IMG/VR virus record: IMGVR_UViG_2563366964_000006
DNA: 23,440 nucleotides
Reading direction: 5' to 3' (one strand)
Origin: a virus
Taxonomy: Duplodnaviria > Heunggongvirae > Uroviricota > Caudoviricetes
Position numbers and translations under genes: made by a program. The number at the start of each line of letters is the position of its first letter. Within the stretch, counting starts at the first letter, position 1. Positions 1 to 7,328 of this stretch are shown here, piece by piece. Below the pieces are notes generated by a model. The model had not been told where the DNA came from, did no database searches, and saw nothing but the letters and a program-made list of their open reading frames with translations.

Positions 1-399
1 ATGCCAAATACTGTAATCGACAGCTGGTCCGGTATGGTGTTTTTGAAGTTCAACGGGGCGAAATTTTCTGCCACTGATTACCCTGTGCTGGCGAAAGTGT
101 TTCCTTCGCTGGTATTACCTGAAGCCCGCGGTGATTTCATTCGTATCTGGGATGACGGGCGAGGTGCAGATGGTGGTCGCGAATTATTAAGCTGGCAGGA
201 AGCTACAAACTTTTCTCAGTTTGCCGGGAATATAGGCGGAGGTGCGGGACACGCAATTAACTTTCATGATGGCATCGCCGGAAATCAGCCAGGATTTTCA
301 CGATTTAATTTCACCAGTAACTCTGTGGGTGATGGTGTGAATTTTGTTGCTGTCAGACCGCGAAATATTGCATTTAACTTTCTGGTGAGGGCTAAATAA
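1..399 (+). CDS. Alternative tail-fibre C-terminal (receptor-binding) module, S'v-like; probably has no independent start in vivo
   Basis: 132-aa ORF with a tail-fibre collar-type motif (LPEARGDFIRIWDDGRGADGGRELLSWQEA resembles the LPDLRG-F-RGWD-GRG-D-GR signature of Mu S / P2 H-type fibres). Opposite strand to the main fibre gene; stop overlaps the next ATG (TAATG at 397-401). Family call from memory, no search. Confidence 0.5.
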   Translation: MPNTVIDSWSGMVFLKFNGAKFSATDYPVLAKVFPSLVLPEARGDFIRIWDDGRGADGGRELLSWQEATNFSQFAGNIGGGAGHAINFHDGIAGNQPGFSRFNFTSNSVGDGVNFVAVRPRNIAFNFLVRAK

Positions 400-992
400 T
401 GAAACCTGTTTTTGATGAAAATGGGCTGGCTACAGTGCCGGGCGATATGCGTTGTTTTTATTATGATGCAGTAACGTATGAATATACGGGCTGGTCTGAT
501 GAATATATTAATACTGGTGTAAGTATGCCCGCCTGTTCCACTGGTATTGACCCGGGCGAAAACATTCCGGGAAAAGTGGCAGTATTTACGGGTAAGGGAT
601 GGAGCCATGAAGAAGACCATCGCAATGAGACTGTTTACTCAACAGAAAATGGTGCAGCTGTTACAGTGGATTATATCGGTGCCATCAAAGACGGTTATGT
701 CACGCTTTCACCGTTAACGCCATATGATAAATGGGATGGTGAGAAATGGGTGACCGATACTGAGGCACAGCATAGCGCAGCAGTAGACGCGGCAGAAGCA
801 CAGCGCCAGTCGCTGATTGATGCTGCAATGGCTTCCATCAGTCTGATTCAACTGAAATTACAGGCCGGACGGAAGCTGACGCAGGCAGAAACAACCCGAC
901 TTAACGCCGTGCTGGATTACATTGACGCGGTGGCGGCAACAGATACCAGCACTGCGCCGGATGTCATCTGGCCTGAACTGCCGGAGGCGTAG
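399..992 (+). CDS. Tail fibre assembly protein (U'-like chaperone of the alternative fibre)
   Basis: 197 aa; C-terminus ...DTSTAPDVIWPELPEA matches the conserved end of phage tail-fibre assembly proteins; immediately follows the fibre-tip ORF with start/stop overlap. Confidence 0.7.
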   Translation: MKPVFDENGLATVPGDMRCFYYDAVTYEYTGWSDEYINTGVSMPACSTGIDPGENIPGKVAVFTGKGWSHEEDHRNETVYSTENGAAVTVDYIGAIKDGYVTLSPLTPYDKWDGEKWVTDTEAQHSAAVDAAEAQRQSLIDAAMASISLIQLKLQAGRKLTQAETTRLNAVLDYIDAVAATDTSTAPDVIWPELPEA

Positions 993-1404
993 GCCATTCA
1001 ATATCTGGCGCACCGGAAGTATCGACCAGTTCCAGTGTGTCCAGATAATCCAGCCACAAATTATATTGCGCCAGTTCCTCACCTTTCAGGCGACCAATCG
1101 CCGCTTTACCAGGCCATTGCTTACTGTTTATGTATTCGTTGACCTGATTAATCAATTGCTGCTTTTCCAGTTCGGCTGCGGCAATTTGTTCCTCATGAGT
1201 TGGCGGTGGAATATCAATCCATGCAGGCATTCCGTCGATGACGCCTCTGTATTTTCCTTCTGGTGCTTCCTTCATAAATTCGGCGGCAACAGTGTCGTCA
1301 ATTTCGATTCCATCACCGGGCCATTCGCCGGATTCCTGATAAGCGATTTTAAGCTCCACAGGGAAAAACGCATTTTTATCGGCACTGAAAATATATCTCT
1401 GCAT
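964..1404 (-). CDS. Tail fibre assembly protein (U-like)
   Basis: 146 aa; C-terminus ...VDTSGAPDIEWPTPPAVQAR carries the same conserved motif; ATG at 1404 lies 2 nt after the fibre gene stop; 3' end converges on and overlaps the opposite-strand assembly gene by 29 bp. Confidence 0.7.
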   Translation of the reverse strand: MQRYIFSADKNAFFPVELKIAYQESGEWPGDGIEIDDTVAAEFMKEAPEGKYRGVIDGMPAWIDIPPPTHEEQIAAAELEKQQLINQVNEYINSKQWPGKAAIGRLKGEELAQYNLWLDYLDTLELVDTSGAPDIEWPTPPAVQAR

Positions 1405-1406
1405 TT

Positions 1407-2147
1407 CTACCGTCCTATCGAAATATAACTGAATCTGTATTGATATGAGATATCACTGGTTGCCACACGCCACGCTGAATTACTGATATGTTCAAAATTT
1501 ACAGACAAAACCTGCGGGGCAGGATTCGACGGGTCTGACTGAACGGCATCAGACATAACACTGACTGAAACCATCGGCTGATTAGGGAATGGTATAGGGA
1601 AGTGTCCACTGATAAAGCGGGTCGAGTTTCCTGAAAAAGTGCCAAACTGAACAATATATCCACCTGGTAGCCTGAACCATCCCGAACCAGAAGCGAATGC
1701 TCCCATATCCGGTATCTGATTATCTCCTGTGCCCACATCCCTTTTCGCCGCTTCTCCCAAACCAAGGTCTGAGAGAACACCTTCAGCATCGCTACGACCA
1801 AGCAACGTTCTGGCGAAAGCCGTCAGGTCTGTCAGGGCCGCGTTTTTAGGACCAGTGAAGTACGGGAGTTTGTTTGCAGCACCAACCAGAGAGGCCAGCG
1901 CTCCCAGAGTATCGTTACCGGGGGCATAGAGTTTATTCAACGCTGCCAGAAGCTGACCAGCAGTTGAATCTGGTTCCATCGCAGCAGCAGTAAGAATGGC
2001 AATCATCTCGCTTTGAACATCGCGAATAGAGCCTTGCTCATTATTAAGATGTTCTGCGGGGACTATAGTCCCTTCAACCCCCGTTGTAGGGTTCCCATCG
2101 TGAAACAGATTGTCAGGGGTATTAATGGGCGGCATTAACGGTTGCAT
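1407..2147 (-). CDS. Tail fibre protein (S-like); start moved to the ATG at 2147 that overlaps the upstream stop (TAATG)
   Basis: Track ORF 1407..2177; the internal ATG at 2147-2145 overlaps the stop of the upstream DUF2313-like gene. Gly/Ala-rich fibre-like repeats and a C-terminal [14 protein letters not shown] tip-like motif; position after baseplate genes and before the assembly protein. Confidence 0.6.
1752..1777. other. Candidate 26-bp serine-invertase (Hin/Gin/Cin-type) crossover site inside the tail-fibre gene
   Basis: TTCTCCCAAACC-AA-GGTCTGAGAGAA: two 12-bp half-sites with 10/12 dyad symmetry around a 2-bp AA core; core AAACCAAGGT is identical to the hixL core as I recall it. Falls at codons ~123-132 of the fibre gene ([10 protein letters not shown]). 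Confidence 0.5.
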
Positions 2148-2719
2148 TATGCGTTTTCCTGATAGGCGAAATAACAAAAGGTATGAGCCGGTTTTAAGTC
2201 CTGGAAGACCTCTTCAATAACCGGGTCGCCAAATGAGGTAAGCCGTTCACCAGCGGCAGAATTACCCGCGCGGAAGCGGTAAACCAGCGTTCCGGAGTTT
2301 TTAACATTCACAACCCACACCCAGATAATGTCTTCAACATAAAGACGATCACCGGCGCGATTAGTGCCCGCCCTGAAGGGCTGTGGTTCATCGATCGTGA
2401 CGGTATATCCAAGGCTGGATGCCAGTCGGGTGAAGTATGGGATGCTGAGTCCGCCCGTTTCGGCCAGTTTGGCCAGCACGCGCTGCTGGCGCTGCTGATA
2501 GCTGGCCCCGGACTGAGCTGTCAGGCCAAGAACACGCTCCCAGTCTGAGAGCAGGTTCATGGCCATATAGGGCGTGACGCCCCCTTTAGCAAGTTCAGCC
2601 GAGTTCTCTACATCGTCGAAAACCCGGGCTTCAGCCTGCAGAGATGCAGCCAGAACCGGCTGACCGGGGCTGTAACTGACTTTGGGTAACAGTAAATTCA
2701 GTAAGGTATAATGGCTCAC
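2147..2719 (-). CDS. Mu gp48-like tail/baseplate protein (DUF2313-type)
   Basis: 190 aa; position between baseplate J-like gene and tail fibre; sequence character of DUF2313/YmfQ-like proteins as recalled. Confidence 0.6.
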
Positions 2720-3783
2720 AGTAATCCAACCTCCACATTACCGAGTCGAAGCCACTCCACTTTCTCCTCATTGACGACCGGGAAGATATTGGCTGCAGGC
2801 GCGATAAATTCGCGGTCAGTAATTCCTGGAATCAGTGATATCAGTGTCCCGGCCTGGCTACGGATAAACGGCACGGCAGGGTCACGGCGACTGTCGTCAT
2901 CCTGAAGAGAAGCGATAATTTGCGTAGTAGCATCGGCTAGTGTCAGACCATCCAGAGATACCTGGACTGAAACGTCAAAATTGACAATGGTCGGGGCAAT
3001 AACCAGGGCGTTCTTAGCCGTCACCGGGCGTACGTCATCAATATGAGCCTGAGTACGATCAATAACATCCTGAGACGGCAGACCACCGGCAGAGGTGATC
3101 ACAATATCAACGGTGCCAAGACCCCGACGCAGAGGATAGACATACGCAGCTGATACACCTGCAACTTCAAGGGCCCAGCGCTTATAGTCATATTTATTGC
3201 CGCCTGCAGGCGGTCGGCGAATAACATCGAGTAAACGGGCCAGTAACTCAGCATCAGTCTCTTCGTCAGTGCCACCAGACATCATCCCGACGGTCACCGT
3301 ACTGTCGAGGCCCGATGGCGTCGTGCTGAGAATGGCAGTGGTGGTTGAGGTTGTATTACCGGCGGTGCCTTTTGCCGACGAGACAGCATTAACAGTGCCT
3401 TTGCCATCGGCTCCGATGGTCAGTTCCGCTGTTGTTGTCCATGCCTGGCTGTCACGCTTAAAAACTAACCCTGCTGCTGCTGTCGTGTTGGGCTGTCCGG
3501 TAAAGGTGGCAGGACCAGAAGCGCTGTTAGCGGGTTTCTTGGTAAGCCCTCGGGTTCTCGCGTGAAGGTAGAGATACTCAGCATCAGCGGTATCCGGGAA
3601 AATCTGACGAACAATCCAGCCCTGATGCTGGTAAAGCCCCTCGGCAACACTTGCAACACTGGAGGCGCGAACGAACCAGTCGCTGTCTTCACCCAGTTTA
3701 TCGTCAGTCAGTTGCAGCTGGTTTTTAATATCACGCAACAGCTCATCGCGGATTTGTGCTGTTGTTTTAGTAACGAAGGGCAT
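2716..3783 (-). CDS. Baseplate J-like protein (Mu gp47-like)
   Basis: 355 aa; typical size and N-terminal character of Baseplate_J proteins; synteny. Confidence 0.75.
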   Translation of the reverse strand: MPFVTKTTAQIRDELLRDIKNQLQLTDDKLGEDSDWFVRASSVASVAEGLYQHQGWIVRQIFPDTADAEYLYLHARTRGLTKKPANSASGPATFTGQPNTTAAAGLVFKRDSQAWTTTAELTIGADGKGTVNAVSSAKGTAGNTTSTTTAILSTTPSGLDSTVTVGMMSGGTDEETDAELLARLLDVIRRPPAGGNKYDYKRWALEVAGVSAAYVYPLRRGLGTVDIVITSAGGLPSQDVIDRTQAHIDDVRPVTAKNALVIAPTIVNFDVSVQVSLDGLTLADATTQIIASLQDDDSRRDPAVPFIRSQAGTLISLIPGITDREFIAPAANIFPVVNEEKVEWLRLGNVEVGLL

Positions 3784-4133
3784 CAGCTCACCTTAACCGG
3801 ATATTTCCAGGTCTGCGGTGAAACACCGGCAGACGTAACAGTGATAAGCAGCAGGAGCCAGCCTGGCTGATAGCGTTCTGCCGTTATATCAATGGATATG
3901 GCCCTGCCATCGTCCAGCATAGGCTGAAGCGCCTGCTCTGCGTACTGGCGGGCGAGTTTACGCACGCGAGGCGTATCTTTTTCCCGCTGTAGCGTGTGCA
4001 AAAGTGACCCCAGTGATGGTGCCGCCCACCATGAGCCAAGCGGCGTCATTAACCGTAAATAAACGGCATTGGCCAGGGAGTCAGTGCTGTCACCGGTATA
4101 GTCGCCGGTGACTGGGTCAATTAGCATTTCCAT
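3783..4133 (-). CDS. Mu gp46-like baseplate protein
   Basis: 116 aa; first gene after the 4134-4227 intergenic gap; stop overlaps the J-like start; synteny with Mu-like baseplate modules. Confidence 0.6.
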   Translation of the reverse strand: MEMLIDPVTGDYTGDSTDSLANAVYLRLMTPLGSWWAAPSLGSLLHTLQREKDTPRVRKLARQYAEQALQPMLDDGRAISIDITAERYQPGWLLLLITVTSAGVSPQTWKYPVKVS

Positions 4134-4163
4134 GCCGACATAGTATCGGCAATGGAAATAATG

Positions 4164-4191
4164 TAAGAGTTGAAGGGGTTCAGTGGGTTAA
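4164..4191 (-). promoter_or_regulatory. Conserved motif (minus strand TTAACCCACTGAACCCCTTCAACTCTTA), candidate late-promoter / activator-binding element
   Basis: 17-bp core GTTGAAGGGGTTCAGTG (plus 4169-4185) is identical to 15957-15973; contains a TGAA-N4-TTCA dyad; ends 35 nt upstream of the ATG at 4133; lies in the only intergenic gap of the tail/baseplate gene block. Confidence 0.4.
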
Positions 4192-4227
4192 TTAGTTTCA
4201 GAAAGGTAAACAGGAAAATACCACAAA

Positions 4228-4815
4228 TTACATCAGCTGATTAGGTTTATCCGTAGTTCCTGCATCGCCACCATGCTCGTGGTCATGGTCGTCATAAGTT
4301 TCACGTACCTTATTGAGCGTGGATGTACCGTCAGCAAGGTCATTCGTTGCTTTCAGAAGCGGTGTATCGAAGTTTGCTTTATTTGTCGCGTTGACATCAT
4401 AGTCGGCGGTATTAACTGAATATTTATTTTTGGCATTCACGATAAAATCATCGCAATTAGCCTCAATAATTTTCCCGCGTTTAAGAACAATATTGCAGCC
4501 TTCATCCGTATACAGTGCAACTTCTCCCGGTTTCAGTTCTTTCAGACGATAGCGGCCATGCTCCGTCGCAATAACAATACCGTGGCTGGTTTTACCGTTA
4601 ATTGGTAACACGACCGCCATCGTGCCAGGTAGCGGATTAGAGGTGAAACCATAATGCTGAAAGAGTTCTATATCCTGTAACGGTTCAGGGCCAAGCCCCT
4701 TGCCCTGAATAGTCTGCGCAGGCCCCGCGCTGTTAACGCGAGTTATTACGCCTCTGAATGCGTTTCTGATACGGTTTAAAGCCATATTAATCCGCTGATC
4801 CACTTTATTCCACAT
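4228..4815 (-). CDS. Baseplate assembly protein V-like / spike (Mu gp45-like); start revised to the ATG at 4815
   Basis: Track ORF 4228..4947 overlaps the upstream gene by 143 nt; internal ATG at 4815 has GGAGA 7 nt upstream and begins MWNKVDQRINMALNRIRNAFRGV, typical of gpV-type proteins. Confidence 0.65.
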   Translation of the reverse strand: MWNKVDQRINMALNRIRNAFRGVITRVNSAGPAQTIQGKGLGPEPLQDIELFQHYGFTSNPLPGTMAVVLPINGKTSHGIVIATEHGRYRLKELKPGEVALYTDEGCNIVLKRGKIIEANCDDFIVNAKNKYSVNTADYDVNATNKANFDTPLLKATNDLADGTSTLNKVRETYDDHDHEHGGDAGTTDKPNQLM

Positions 4816-6010
4816 CAATAATCTCCAGCTTTTTATTAACCTTAGCGCGGCTTTTACGCAGTTTGCGTTTTTTAGGATAAGCATCGGGTATCCAGATACC
4901 ATCCTCTTTAAGCCTGAGCGTGGTGACGGTGTTATCGGGGCGGCCACCGCTAAATTCCCGGCCCATCAGAAAGAAAATATCGTCGATACCATGGGGCTCG
5001 CTGCGTACACGAATACGCTGACCTGGAGCCCAGAGCTTGCCGCTCTCCATGCGATGACCTTTCACTACAGCGGTTAACTCATAACCACTGAGCCGGGCAT
5101 CTGCCATGGCTTTTTTAGCCCGATAGTCAACCTGCGCCTGGTTATCAGCATCACCCACAACCATGATTTGAGGTCTGTAAAAGGAGACACTCGGGTCACG
5201 AACGACACTGCGGAGACCATGGAAACCACTCTCGGGGGAACCAACCGTCGTCAACAGGTCATTGTCACTGTCGTCGTCACCATCATCACTGTAAACATCG
5301 ATAATCTCAGTCCCTGAGGAAGACTTAGAACCCTGAGCGTGTCCCTGAGCCAGTACGGTCAGTTCGGAAAAAGAGCCATTCACAGATGAGCGATCGCTGA
5401 GGTCGAGAATATTATTCCCACGGCCATCACGGTTAAGCACCAGAGTAGCCACCGGGTCGGCCGTGTAATCCGGACCACCGATAACCAGCGTGCCGTCAGG
5501 CTCAAACCATGGCCAGAGCCCTCTGGCGGCAGCGGCGCGTTCCAGAGTGTCCCAGGCTCGCTCCCCTGGCTCAACGCTGACTTTATCGCTCTGCATCGAC
5601 GACTCAGCCTGCAGACGGATATTTCGTACCCCGAGCGGCCTGACCACCTGAGCGATAACTTCTTCCAGGCTCAGTTGACGGGAGGTGAATACGGGAGATG
5701 CGCAATCCACAAGGACGGCAGAACCATCGCGGCCAGAAATCCCCAGAGATACCTGCTGGCGTGATACGCGACGTTGAATAGTATCCACACGACCGGACAT
5801 CACTACGTCATCCCCTACGCGAACCAGCACAGGCACGCCCCGCGCAATTGAGGCCGGGAATACGCCATCAGGTAGCCCCATCGTCACACTCCAGGCGTCA
5901 GCGGGCACCAGAAAATCAGAATCAATCTGATAACGACTCCAGGAACTGTGGACTTTGCCATCAATAATCAGGCTCACCTTGTCCTGCGAGCTTTTATCTT
6001 GAGTAGGCAT
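4805..6010 (-). CDS. Baseplate hub protein (Mu P / gp44-like)
   Basis: 401 aa; size and position downstream of the DNA-circularisation gene; synteny. Confidence 0.75.
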   Translation of the reverse strand: MPTQDKSSQDKVSLIIDGKVHSSWSRYQIDSDFLVPADAWSVTMGLPDGVFPASIARGVPVLVRVGDDVVMSGRVDTIQRRVSRQQVSLGISGRDGSAVLVDCASPVFTSRQLSLEEVIAQVVRPLGVRNIRLQAESSMQSDKVSVEPGERAWDTLERAAAARGLWPWFEPDGTLVIGGPDYTADPVATLVLNRDGRGNNILDLSDRSSVNGSFSELTVLAQGHAQGSKSSSGTEIIDVYSDDGDDDSDNDLLTTVGSPESGFHGLRSVVRDPSVSFYRPQIMVVGDADNQAQVDYRAKKAMADARLSGYELTAVVKGHRMESGKLWAPGQRIRVRSEPHGIDDIFFLMGREFSGGRPDNTVTTLRLKEDGIWIPDAYPKKRKLRKSRAKVNKKLEIIDVE

Positions 6011-7328
6011 TCAGTACATCTCCCGCTTTCAGTGCATTGGGGTTACGTAGCGTCGGATTCAGGCGCAGCAGCTCGCTGGCTCGGCTGTAGTCTGCATACC
6101 AGAGATGAGCGAGCAAATGCAGGTTACAGTCTGCTTCAACCGTTCTGGTGGTAAGCGGTGGTCGCTGAGTGATGACGGTGGTCCCCAGCTCCTGGACGGC
6201 CAGCGCGATATCTTTCAGACCATTAACAACAGGCTGCCAGGTTACACCGCTCGCGCTGACTGATGAGCTGACGGCCTGAGTGTCGTCTGCAAACAGTTCG
6301 CGGGTCAGGTCAATAGCCTGTTGAATAGCCTTACGAGTATCACCGGCGATCTGTTCAACATCATCCGGTGAAAGTAATGTGATGACGCTTTCATCGCTAA
6401 GAATATCGGAAGCATCAGTCGCCAGCTGCAGCGCAACCTGAATTCGCGTCGCGGTTACCAGCTCGGCAATATCGCTGACTGAAGAACCTGAAGGCGTTGC
6501 CACGGCCGAGGTGGTCTGCCCTGTAATCAGTTTCTCGGATAATGCTGCGACTTCCTGCAATGAAGTATTACCGCTCTTCCAGTCCGCCATTATGATCCCG
6601 GCCACGCCAGTGACGTCCGATGACGTGCTGGCATAAGACCCTGGGTTATTGCTCACCGAAGATTTTGACGAGAGCGATGTCAGGCTGAGAGCGCTCTGCA
6701 AATCGTTCATATAGGCTTTGGGGTAGTTGATAAAGTCAGTTGTCGTGCTGACAAAACCAGTCAGCTCACCTTTAAGAACGGTCACCATATTCAGCGAGGT
6801 GGTCGCCAGCCCCTTGATACGCTTCATCCATTTTTTGGCTGTTCTCAGCGGAGCGAGCACATTATCGATGGCGGTCTGCGCCATATCGAGAGTGGACTGC
6901 ACCTGGTTGAAAATAATGTCAGCCTGCGAGAGAGGATTATCGCTGCCAAAGAAAGGCACTTCCGGCTTCGCCTGCAGGAAAACCACCTCAACAACGCAGT
7001 AATCCACATTTTCAGCCTCATGGGATGCCTGGTATTCGATGCATTGCATATATGGCATTGAACCGAAGACGGGGTGAATCAACTCCGCGTTACCGCGCTT
7101 ATCGAGCGCCGCAAGGAATGACTGCAGGCGGGTTTCATAGGCATCCCCCCAGAATAACGACGTTATTCTCAGGTTGCGCGGTTTGCGCCCCAGGTCGTCA
7201 ACGTCACCGCCATCAACATAAGGGTACTCGTAGACTGCCGTATCGCGGCTGGCGCTGTCACGGGTGTTAACAACGTCAAAGGTCACGCCACGGAACGACG
7301 CATCCTGTAATGAATCTTCCCAGCTCAC
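5994..7328 (-). CDS. DNA circularisation protein N-like (Mu gp43-like)
   Basis: 444 aa; immediately after tape measure with GTGA start/stop overlap and AGGAGG 7 nt upstream; N-terminal domain resembles the DNA_circ_N family as recalled. Confidence 0.7.
   Translation of the reverse strand: MSWEDSLQDASFRGVTFDVVNTRDSASRDTAVYEYPYVDGGDVDDLGRKPRNLRITSLFWGDAYETRLQSFLAALDKRGNAELIHPVFGSMPYMQCIEYQASHEAENVDYCVVEVVFLQAKPEVPFFGSDNPLSQADIIFNQVQSTLDMAQTAIDNVLAPLRTAKKWMKRIKGLATTSLNMVTVLKGELTGFVSTTTDFINYPKAYMNDLQSALSLTSLSSKSSVSNNPGSYASTSSDVTGVAGIIMADWKSGNTSLQEVAALSEKLITGQTTSAVATPSGSSVSDIAELVTATRIQVALQLATDASDILSDESVITLLSPDDVEQIAGDTRKAIQQAIDLTRELFADDTQAVSSSVSASGVTWQPVVNGLKDIALAVQELGTTVITQRPPLTTRTVEADCNLHLLAHLWYADYSRASELLRLNPTLRNPNALKAGDVLNAYSR

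Follow-up and report, generated by a model that had tools for sequence, protein, structure and literature searches.

A probable Mu G-segment-type tail-fibre switch in a Mu-like prophage of Escherichia coli KTE40

At one edge of a 23,440-nt stretch of viral DNA (IMG/VR record IMGVR_UViG_2563366964_000006; the window) lies a tail-fibre gene, followed by two convergent genes and, on the opposite strand, a short open reading frame (ORF) that begins at position 1. Is this group part of an inversion system that joins a constant fibre N-terminus to alternative tips? The original prediction was that it is, and it placed the missing parts, a second crossover site and an invertase gene, beyond position 1. 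The source contig, KE136832.1 of Escherichia coli KTE40 (locus L004; window position x is L004 12148 - x), extends past this edge. The provirus boundary that defines the window omits the final 822 nt of the prophage; within 1-822 nt upstream of position 1 lie the second site, the gene for the invertase and the end of the prophage (Table 1). That a Mu-like transposable prophage carries here a host-range switch of the Mu G-segment type is, in our view, highly probable.

Table 1. Features of the fibre switch region (window coordinates unless L004 is given)
Feature	Position	Strand	Remarks
Sc, constant N-terminal fibre part, aa 1-128	1766..2147	-	supplies start codon and upstream transcription
Fibre-side 26-bp crossover site	1752..1777		dyad, hixL match, inverted second copy in L004
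Core dinucleotide, putative strand-exchange point	1764..1765		AA on plus strand, TT on coding strand; in Leu128 codon (CTT)
Sv, expressed tip, aa 129-246	1407..1763	-	Gp53-like_C, Pfam PF21882, E 1.4e-8
U-like tail-fibre assembly (chaperone) gene, cognate to Sv	964..1404	-	Caudo_TAP, E 7.8e-34
U'-like tail-fibre assembly gene, cognate to silent tip	399..992	+	Caudo_TAP, E 1e-27
S'v, final 399 nt of silent alternative tip, collar-type	1..399	+	frame continues upstream into second site
In-window part of invertible segment	1..1765		whole segment 1,822 bp; other 57 nt upstream of position 1
Invertase-side 26-bp site	L004 12193-12218; 46-71 nt upstream of position 1		TTCTCCCAAACC-AA-CCTTTTATGGAT
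Gin-type serine invertase, 186 aa, full-length	L004 12303-12863; 156-716 nt upstream of position 1		last gene of the prophage

The element carries a Mu-type tail/baseplate set (Pfam Phage_Mu_Gp37, Gp45, GP46, Baseplate_J and Gp48) and interrupts the host gene fhuE, with its right end at L004 12969, 106 bp past the invertase gene. By its Mu-type tail and baseplate genes and its insertion into a host gene, we identify it as a Mu-like transposable prophage. The order of genes is gp47-like, gp48-like, S, U, U', S' and invertase. This order equals that of the Mu G region, in support of the proposed Mu G layout. For window positions 1780-8000 the phage collection gave no near match, and complete E. 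coli genomes gave a single match, of 73%. A scan for promoters and terminators gave nothing exceeding chance, and an exact search with a 41-mer from the constant fibre part returned one IMG/VR provirus contig, which ends at about window position 408, and none in genome_contigs.

The fibre-side crossover site reads TTCTCCCAAACCAAGGTCTGAGAGAA on the plus strand, i.e., TTCTCCCAAACC-AA-GGTCTGAGAGAA. On the fibre-coding (minus) strand, TTCTCTCAGACC represents the outer half-site, TT the 2-bp core and GGTTTGGGAGAA the inner half-site. Recomputing the dyad gave the predicted value, the arms TTCTCCCAAACC and TTCTCTCAGACC (the reverse complement of the right arm) being equal at 10 of 12 positions around the core. 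The minus strand over the site, (G)TT CTC TCA GAC CTT GGT TTG GGA GAA, encodes VLSDLGLGE, which corresponds to codons 124-132 of the 246-aa fibre. The likeness to the core of hixL holds for the actual Salmonella sequence: hixL, upstream of hin, is TTCTTGAAAACCAAGGTTTTTGATAA, and the two sites have 19 of 26 positions in common, the central AAACCAAGGT among them. The 10/12 dyad symmetry by itself is not significant, as two such 26-mers occur in the window where shuffles lead to an expectation of 0.9; the other one, at 4684, is unrelated. The site stands out because of its 9/10 match to the centre of an invertase site, its position and its second copy outside the window.

This second copy lies upstream of position 1, as predicted, where the inner arm and core of the fibre-side site recur in inverted orientation at L004 12193-12206. 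The 14-mer TTCTCCCAAACCAA has exactly two copies in 20.7 kb of the source contig (0.11 expected), inverted around four genes, and no third copy of the arm is present in these 20.7 kb with up to two mismatches tolerated. Inner half-sites and core dinucleotide together form a 15-bp inverted repeat with 100% complementarity. Read along one strand, the cores (L004 10383-84 and 12205-06) are TT in site 1 and AA in site 2; they become identical once the sites are aligned, as religation of an inverted product would require. The segment is thus flanked, as in Din-type systems, by two inverted 26-bp sites, each with a 2-bp core between 12-bp half-sites. At the invertase-side site, the outer half (ATCCATAAAAGG) agrees with the inner arm at 5 of 12 positions only. 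Its CC beside the core is also present in functional hixR, and CCTTT is found beside the core in four more loci with the same invertase clade (L006, L009, L012 and L013).

The predicted invertase is a serine recombinase composed of Resolvase (PF00239, E 2.8e-37) and HTH_7 (PF02796) domains. It aligns end to end with Mu Gin, gapless over Gin residues 1-185 (E 3e-55), whereas resolvases reach only 1e-21. An N-terminal catalytic domain with nucleophilic Ser9/10 and a C-terminal helix-turn-helix, the features of a Din-type recombinase, are both present, and residues R7, S9, R42, D64, R65 and R68 are invariant in the invertase alignment (A1). Sequence identity is 49% to Gin, approximately 50% to Gin and Cin, and 73% to the invertase of Citrobacter phage Omnitron. 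More than 400 contigs, from Citrobacter, E. coli, Salmonella, Enterobacter and Klebsiella, encode the exact protein, which we assign to a distinct, divergent and widespread clade. Neither the invertase nor the fibre parts have a specific NCBIfam model. Both an inverted copy of the site and an invertase are therefore present on the source contig within a few kilobases upstream of position 1. A chance palindrome at 1752-1777 was considered as well and rejected, given that inverted copy and invertase lie where they were predicted.

The fibre gene extends from 2147 to 1407, its start overlapping the stop of the gp48-like gene. Neither the complete E. coli genomes nor the phage collection contain a near DNA match to its constant part Sc. 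The protein relatives of Sc have the constant part in common and carry many different tips, and where constant parts are near-identical the tips part ways right after ...SDL. The U gene starts 2 nt past the fibre stop codon and is convergent with U', with an overlap of 29 nt; the ATG of U' shares the sequence TAATG with the stop of the silent tip. Both products belong to Caudo_TAP, in keeping with the predicted pair of convergent assembly genes. The region thus has the Mu G-type organization, with a crossover site inside the fibre ORF, a tip swap that is in frame and an assembly gene for each tip.

The silent tip S'v was expected to remain open towards the second site, and its frame indeed continues for 54-57 nt beyond position 1, up to that site (ORF L004 11749..12201, minus strand). 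S'v is a cassette without its own start, and the ATG at position 1 is not a real one. Its designation as a collar-type tip needs some qualification. The Collar match of ORF 1..399 itself is below threshold (E 0.011, 16 bits versus a cut-off of 24); the ORF is 40% identical to the silent-position fibre tip of Citrobacter phage Omnitron, whose close relatives have precomputed Collar (PF07484) matches. ORF 1..399 has been annotated as a gene in its own right (WGA_01050, hypothetical protein, 132 aa), and the ATG and the agreement of two gene-calling pipelines would be in line with an independent gene rather than a promoterless cassette. We reject this reading as practically negligible in probability: the frame is open for a further 54 nt to the crossover site, the scan revealed no promoter-like site upstream of S'v, no obvious ribosome-binding site precedes the ATG on reading the sequence, and the same sequence forms the C-terminus of full-length, fused fibres in relatives. 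In addition, RefSeq annotates an S'v homologue as a partial gene without N-terminus.

Both wiring states appear in relatives. Against 40 complete E. coli genomes and P2-like phages, Megablast alignments stop at 1765-1790, in most cases at 1765-1768, and the 96-99% identity of the segment to P2-like prophages ceases at the core dinucleotide. A related Mu-like contig (L014) has the segment in inverted orientation, with 98.4% identity and with ends exactly at both cores. Escherichia phage 500465-2 has the Sv sequence in the silent position beside the invertase and S'v fused to the constant fibre part; relative to the P2-like prophage of E. coli 503025, its cassette is flipped and the flanks are 99.98% identical. 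Over the 6.4 kb that lead up to the site, a sister prophage (L018) shares 99.95% identity; from there L018 continues into a collar-type tip, and this expressed tip is a close relative of the one that is silent in KTE40. In proteins P0152-P0155, S'v is fused to the constant fibre part, giving a length of 279 aa, and these natural fusions share 77-91% identity with the predicted flipped product at full coverage. The exact predicted flipped protein is absent from a collection of 15 billion proteins. KTE40 itself is represented by a single orientation, in one draft assembly, and four complete E. coli genomes with the same invertase allele have differing cassettes, with no isogenic flip for the clade. 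Inversion of such prophage segments has been measured in E. coli cultures (PMC4272514), and the biology of the G segment has been described (PMC4406740). Inversion would be expected in the KTE40 strain as well.

These comparisons also bear on the view that the boundary within the fibre gene is an ordinary mosaic one, where a conserved coding motif (LGLGE) marks fibre modules shuffled by homologous recombination and the dyad is due to chance and no invertase substrate. Many tips do follow near-identical constant parts, and approximately 0.9 chance dyads of 10/12 are expected in the window, which has the unrelated second one at 4684. Yet shuffling of this kind leaves unexplained why an inverted copy and a Gin-type invertase are situated exactly at the predicted places, why homology breaks on the 2-bp core at both ends and why the same cassette occurs cleanly inverted in an isogenic background. 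On these points, mosaicism by homologous recombination alone is rejected, and we regard the mosaic boundary as very improbable.

Within the 5' part of its invertase gene, a Din-type system has an enhancer formed by two Fis sites at a distance of approximately 48 bp. We compared homologous positions, anchored on hin, by a crude consensus score. By this crude score, the conserved Fis pair reaches 9.4-12.4 in Hin, Gin, two P2-like invertases and L015, and KTE40-type genes reach 6.4 and 3.6 at the homologous positions. The latter are devoid of the G/C boundary bases and have a GC-rich stretch in between, and the pair inside the invertase gene is not recognisable at the homologous positions by this score; an enhancer may lie elsewhere. 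In Hin, activation by Fis and the enhancer involves basic residues 47, 48 and 51 as well as three residues of the DNA-binding domain, Q151, R154 and L155, all from its helix 1 (PMC3798978). The KTE40 counterparts are K46, K47, E50, A150, R153 and E154; three of these six positions are conserved, and E50, A150 and E154 take the places of K51, Q151 and L155, respectively. One of the three basic residues of helix B is replaced in the invertase clade, and Gin helix-E residues F104, H106, M108 and M114 correspond to N, R, I and Y in the KTE40 invertase.

With these contact residues absent and the Fis sites unrecognised, regulation of the invertase may therefore differ. Our suggestion here is a tentative one, and rather doubtful: the clade may invert fibre cassettes without Fis or with another enhancer, on Gin-type inner half-sites. 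A half-site common to both enzyme types would account for the transfer of identical cassettes between Mu-like phages and P2-like ones, and for breakpoints that fall exactly on the 2-bp core. The same features could also mean that the architecture is invertible and that inversion has been lost in the KTE40 prophage, owing to a weak outer half-site or an invertase that cannot be activated. The 5/12 outer half-site, the non-conserved Fis-contact residues, the unrecognised in-gene Fis sites and the one known orientation are all compatible with such a loss, and the G segment of SfMu has been proposed to be frozen as a result of a single change in one repeat (PMC4406740). However, no reading frame is broken, be it of either tip, of either chaperone gene or of the invertase, hundreds of contigs from several genera encode the exact invertase protein, the CC-type outer half-site recurs alongside the same invertase clade, and the 99.95%-identical sister prophage joins the other kind of tip at exactly the same site. 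We thus consider a frozen switch unlikely.

Returning to the reading as a working switch of the Mu G type, the locus has its anatomy, an intact invertase and an alternative tip in frame. In the fibre, an exchangeable tip follows an N-terminal part (aa 1-128) that stays fixed, and the 1,822-bp segment presents two tip cassettes with their cognate assembly genes, tail to tail (Sv-U, U'-S'v), between inverted sites. By homology with Gin and Hin, the invertase, encoded just outside the segment, would bind both sites and cleave at the central TT/AA through Ser9, and one subunit pair would turn by 180 degrees prior to religation. The assembled orientation yields the 246-aa fibre with its Gp53-like tip, plus U, and the flipped orientation would yield a 279-aa fibre with the collar-type tip, plus U'. 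Induced particles would then have two receptor specificities, and host range would be expected to change accordingly.

Because an invertase-driven host-range switch is of a well-known kind, the switch, although correctly predicted, is ordinary: it is a compact Mu-like addition to the classical family of invertase-driven tail-fibre switches, with little import beyond annotation. For annotation it illustrates several pitfalls, namely a provirus boundary that drops second site and invertase, a promoterless cassette called as a 132-aa gene, and assembly breaks. Draft assemblies of relatives frequently break at the crossover site. Of possible specialist interest are the 1.8-kb cassette that Mu-like phages share with P2-like ones, its exchange points lying exactly on the core dinucleotide, and an invertase clade that appears to have lost the canonical Fis/enhancer interface.

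Among known systems, Hin/hix of Salmonella shares the structure and centre of the site (19/26 to hixL) and a 14-15-bp inverted repeat made up of one half-site and the core. Its hixR (TTATCAAAAACC-TT-CCAAAAGGAAAA) resembles the second KTE40 site in having a poorly matching outer half that starts with CC. Hin inverts a promoter together with its own gene, whereas a coding cassette is inverted in KTE40 and the invertase gene lies outside the segment, and, of the Hin activation features (PMC3798978), K51, Q151 and L155 are unmatched and the two Fis sites at approximately nt 26-88 of hin have no recognisable counterpart.

The P2-like prophages (500465-2, EC26 and 503025), which we grouped for comparison with e14 Pin and P1 Cin, have the same cassette (window 1..1765-1790 at 96-99% nucleotide identity) with identical inner half-sites and core. 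Their phage backbone as a whole is unrelated, as is their constant fibre part, and they also differ in their outer half-sites (CGTTTAAGAAAA) and in their invertases, which are Gin-like, of approximately 195 aa and approximately 50% identical to that of KTE40. A shufflon in a P2-like prophage of EPEC has been described (PMC4272514).

The Mu G segment has the same gene order as KTE40, a site within the fibre ORF and an invertase, Gin, that can be aligned end to end. Both phages are transposable, with Mu-type baseplate genes and insertion into host genes (fhuE in KTE40), and both have 26-bp sites with a 2-bp core, those of Mu being gixL (TTATCCAAAACC-TC-GGTTTACAGGAA) and gixR (TTCCTGTAAACC-GA-GGTTTTGGATAA). 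The KTE40 version is the smaller one: its segment has 1.8 kb compared with approximately 3 kb, its fibre 246 or 279 aa compared with 504 aa for Mu S, its constant part 128 aa compared with approximately 170 aa, and its inverted repeat 15 bp compared with 34 bp, with core TT/AA instead of TC/GA. It further differs from Mu in its invertase, 49% identical to Gin with Fis-contact residues not conserved and in-gene Fis sites not recognisable, and in having no com/mom region, since the prophage ends 106 bp past the invertase gene. Multi-cassette inversion systems, such as Min of plasmid p15B and the EPEC shufflon, go beyond the two sites and two cassettes of the KTE40 prophage; what they have in common with its relatives are near-identical constant parts that carry many tips at one crossover point.

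Our original prediction placed a 26-bp crossover site with 10/12 dyad symmetry and a likeness to hixL inside the tail-fibre gene, as part of a Hin/Gin-type inversion switch. Window positions 1752–1777 read TTCTCCCAAACCAAGGTCTGAGAGAA, two 12-bp arms that are indeed complementary at 10/12 positions around a 2-bp core, and the minus strand encodes VLSDLGLGE (codons 124–132 of the 246-aa fibre gene). Taken alone, this symmetry is within chance, with two such 26-mers observed in the window and 0.9 expected from shuffles. The only other one, at 4684–4709 within the gp45-like gene (TTCAGGGCCAAGCCCCTTGCCCTGAA), is unlike invertase sites and most likely a chance occurrence: it matches their centre, AAACC..GGTTT, at 3/10 positions, whereas the site at 1752–1777 matches at 9/10. 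The hixL likeness also holds, since hixL (TTCTTGAAAACCAAGGTTTTTGATAA), which we checked upstream of hin in real Salmonella enterica subsp. diarizonae sequence, is identical to the site at 19/26 positions.

The fibre protein occurs only once in the protein collection, and the single contig encoding it is KE136832.1 from E. coli KTE40 (GCA_000408025.1; L004). Window 1..3000 matches L004 9148–12147 exactly, so that window position x corresponds to L004 12148 − x. Another 54 nt of open frame extend the silent fibre-tip ORF upstream of the window into a second site, TTCTCCCAAACC-AA-CCTTTTATGGAT (L004 12193–12218, 46–71 nt upstream of window position 1). The 14-mer TTCTCCCAAACCAA has two exact copies in 20.7 kb, in inverted orientation, where 0.11 matches are expected; the inverted repeat is 15 bp long and perfect, with 1,822 bp between the two cores. 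The gene order is baseplate J, gp48-like, S, U, U′, S′ and invertase, where S and U are the expressed fibre and assembly genes and S′ and U′ the silent pair. Both the observation and its interpretation were thus right, with the second site and a Gin-like invertase gene lying just beyond the window, where they had been expected.

Features of the inversion region (window coordinates)
Feature	Position	Strand	Remarks
Serine invertase, 186 aa	start 156 nt upstream of window (L004)		Resolvase and HTH_7 domains
Fibre-tip ORF (silent cassette)	1..399	opposite to fibre gene	sub-threshold Collar match, E 0.011
Assembly gene	399..992	plus	Caudo_TAP; convergent with 964..1404, downstream of fibre gene
Assembly gene	964..1404	minus	Caudo_TAP
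Tail-fibre gene, 246 aa	2147..1407	minus	ATG overlaps stop of upstream Mu gp48-like gene

The two convergent assembly genes are as proposed, and each tip–chaperone pair is tightly spaced, with a TAATG overlap in one and a 2-nt gap in the other. The opposite-strand tip ORF is likewise present; the collar-type motif claimed for it stays below threshold. This ORF shares 40% identity with the tip in silent position in Citrobacter phage Omnitron, close relatives of which have precomputed Collar (PF07484) matches. Neither a start nor a promoter of its own was found for the silent cassette.

The window starts exactly on the gene-caller ATG of the silent cassette and lacks the terminal 822 nt of the prophage (L004 12147–12969), which comprise 57 nt of cassette sequence, the other crossover site, the gene for the invertase and the Mu-type right end. 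For this region, IMG/VR has a further provirus, UViG_2563366964_000005, which ends earlier still, at about window 408. At L004 12970, about 106–107 nt past the invertase stop codon, the contig becomes homologous to intact fhuE as found in each of 5,426 E. coli genomes, which makes the invertase gene the final one in a Mu-like prophage interrupting fhuE (region L004 12864–13500, outside the window). The prophage terminates in ...GCGCTACA, which resembles the right end of Mu. In contrast to phage Mu, the prophage has no com/mom region.

Besides the anatomy of the switch, its alternative states are seen in relatives. Segments 96–99% identical to window 1..1765–1790 occur in several P2-like phages and in 40 complete E. 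coli genomes. None of these matches continues past 1790, and most stop at 1765–1768, the core. For the rest of the window, there is no near relative among complete E. coli genomes or in the phage collection. In an E. coli EC26 prophage, the cassette is wired as in KTE40, with a recombinase gene adjoining. Phage 500465-2 has the KTE40 silent tip fused to a P2-type fibre, and there the tip expressed in KTE40 is silent and adjoins a DNA invertase. This phage and a prophage of E. coli 503025 are 99.98% identical in their flanks, whereas the middle 1,827 bp are inverted, with breakpoints inside the repeats. A metagenome contig of a Mu-like phage (L014) carries L004 10383–12206 inverted at 98.4% identity between collinear flanks of 71% identity. 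Over the 6,397 nt up to the site, sister prophage L018 and the KTE40 prophage share 99.95% identity; L018 then continues with a collar-type tip and a U′-like gene. Natural counterparts of the predicted flipped fusion, 279 aa long, match it over its full length (77–91% identity), and constant parts 98–100% identical to that of KTE40 (fibre aa 1–128) carry many unrelated tips right after ...SDL, the codon with the core. From these comparisons, we take the site at 1752–1777 to be a real exchange point.

Many database proteins with a KTE40-type constant part are flagged partial, and P0011, P0013, P0021, P0026, P0036 and P0039 among them are 125–130 aa long, which indicates that draft contigs tend to break at or just past the crossover site. 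Assemblies would be expected to break there if they were confused by the presence of both orientations or by repeated cassettes.

At the invertase-side site, CC replaces GG beside the core, and the outer half is weak, matching at 5/12 positions. Since hixR (TTATCAAAAACC-TT-CCAAAAGGAAAA, in front of the flagellin gene of S. enterica subsp. diarizonae) likewise has CC, and CCTTT beside the core recurs with the KTE40 invertase clade in loci L006, L009, L012 and L013, we read this as a feature of the clade and not as decay. In the Mu-like family of the KTE40 prophage, the phage retains its outer half-sites (TTCTCTCAGACC at the fibre end, CCTTTT(A/G)TGGAT at the invertase end) and inner half-sites move with the cassettes.

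Several relatives depart from this layout. In P0004, P0046, L012 8116–8277 and L013 7876–8043, the constant part runs in frame (...SDLHLRAQADSEI...) into the C-terminal third of a tail-fibre assembly (tfa) protein. Such fusions point to additional crossover sites within tfa genes or to aberrant products of recombination. The Citrobacter braakii relative (L013 7001–8720) has a single cassette, possibly as the result of a deletion, with only a fibre, one assembly gene and the invertase; its invertase-side outer half-site (AA-CCTTTTGTGGAT) directly abuts the tfa gene end. An E. coli O127:H6-type Mu-like prophage (L016 5001–7965) has the two-cassette layout of KTE40, and after its silent cassette there is no invertase gene, host eut genes being found there instead. 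Inversion has been reported in a 'Mu prophage' of EPEC (Goldberg et al., PMC4272514), and if this is the same element, an invertase would be required in trans. In L006 5354–5808 and L014 8207–8667, two features that KTE40 does not have lie between the crossover site and the KTE40-type invertase gene: a perfect hairpin (GGTCACCTATATAGGTGACC) and a gene for a 140-aa protein of unknown function (WP_003030314). A 96.6% identical copy of the invertase gene is found on the 198-kb E. coli plasmid pMCR10_2641_2 (L007 5613–6574), detached from any phage, with a truncated tail-fibre assembly gene alongside, between IS26 copies and beside a heat-resistance island.

The mechanism can be predicted from the homologues Gin and Hin (PMC3798978, PMC4406740): invertase dimers on the two sites would synapse, Ser9 would cut at the TT/AA core, and rotation and religation would follow. 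Inversion would swap aa 129–246 (Gp53-like tip, co-expressed with U) for a 151-aa collar-type tip co-expressed with U′. We infer that the segment inverts in KTE40 and that the switch of tips affects host range.

The KTE40 invertase aligns without gaps to Mu Gin residues 1–185 (E 3e-55, versus about 1e-21 for resolvases), and the catalytic residues are present. It is 49–51% identical to Gin and P2-like invertases, 51% to Cin and 73% to the invertase of phage Omnitron, which shares the short-fibre layout; it belongs to a separate clade. Hin residues K47, R48, K51, Q151, R154 and L155, which Fis/enhancer activation has been shown to require and which are reportedly conserved among DNA invertases (PMC3798978), correspond to K46, K47, E50, A150, R153 and E154, and Gin helix-E residues F104, H106, M108 and M114 to N, R, I and Y. 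A Fis-like 15-mer pair (Gin nt 22–36 and 71–85) is conserved in Hin, Gin, two P2-like invertases and locus L015; by a crude score, which is not decisive, it is not recognisable in KTE40-type invertase genes. The sole lead of some novelty is the divergent clade, which may not depend on the canonical Fis enhancer. Otherwise, the system is a further example of a textbook kind of switch, with the gene order of the phage Mu G region, as originally claimed.
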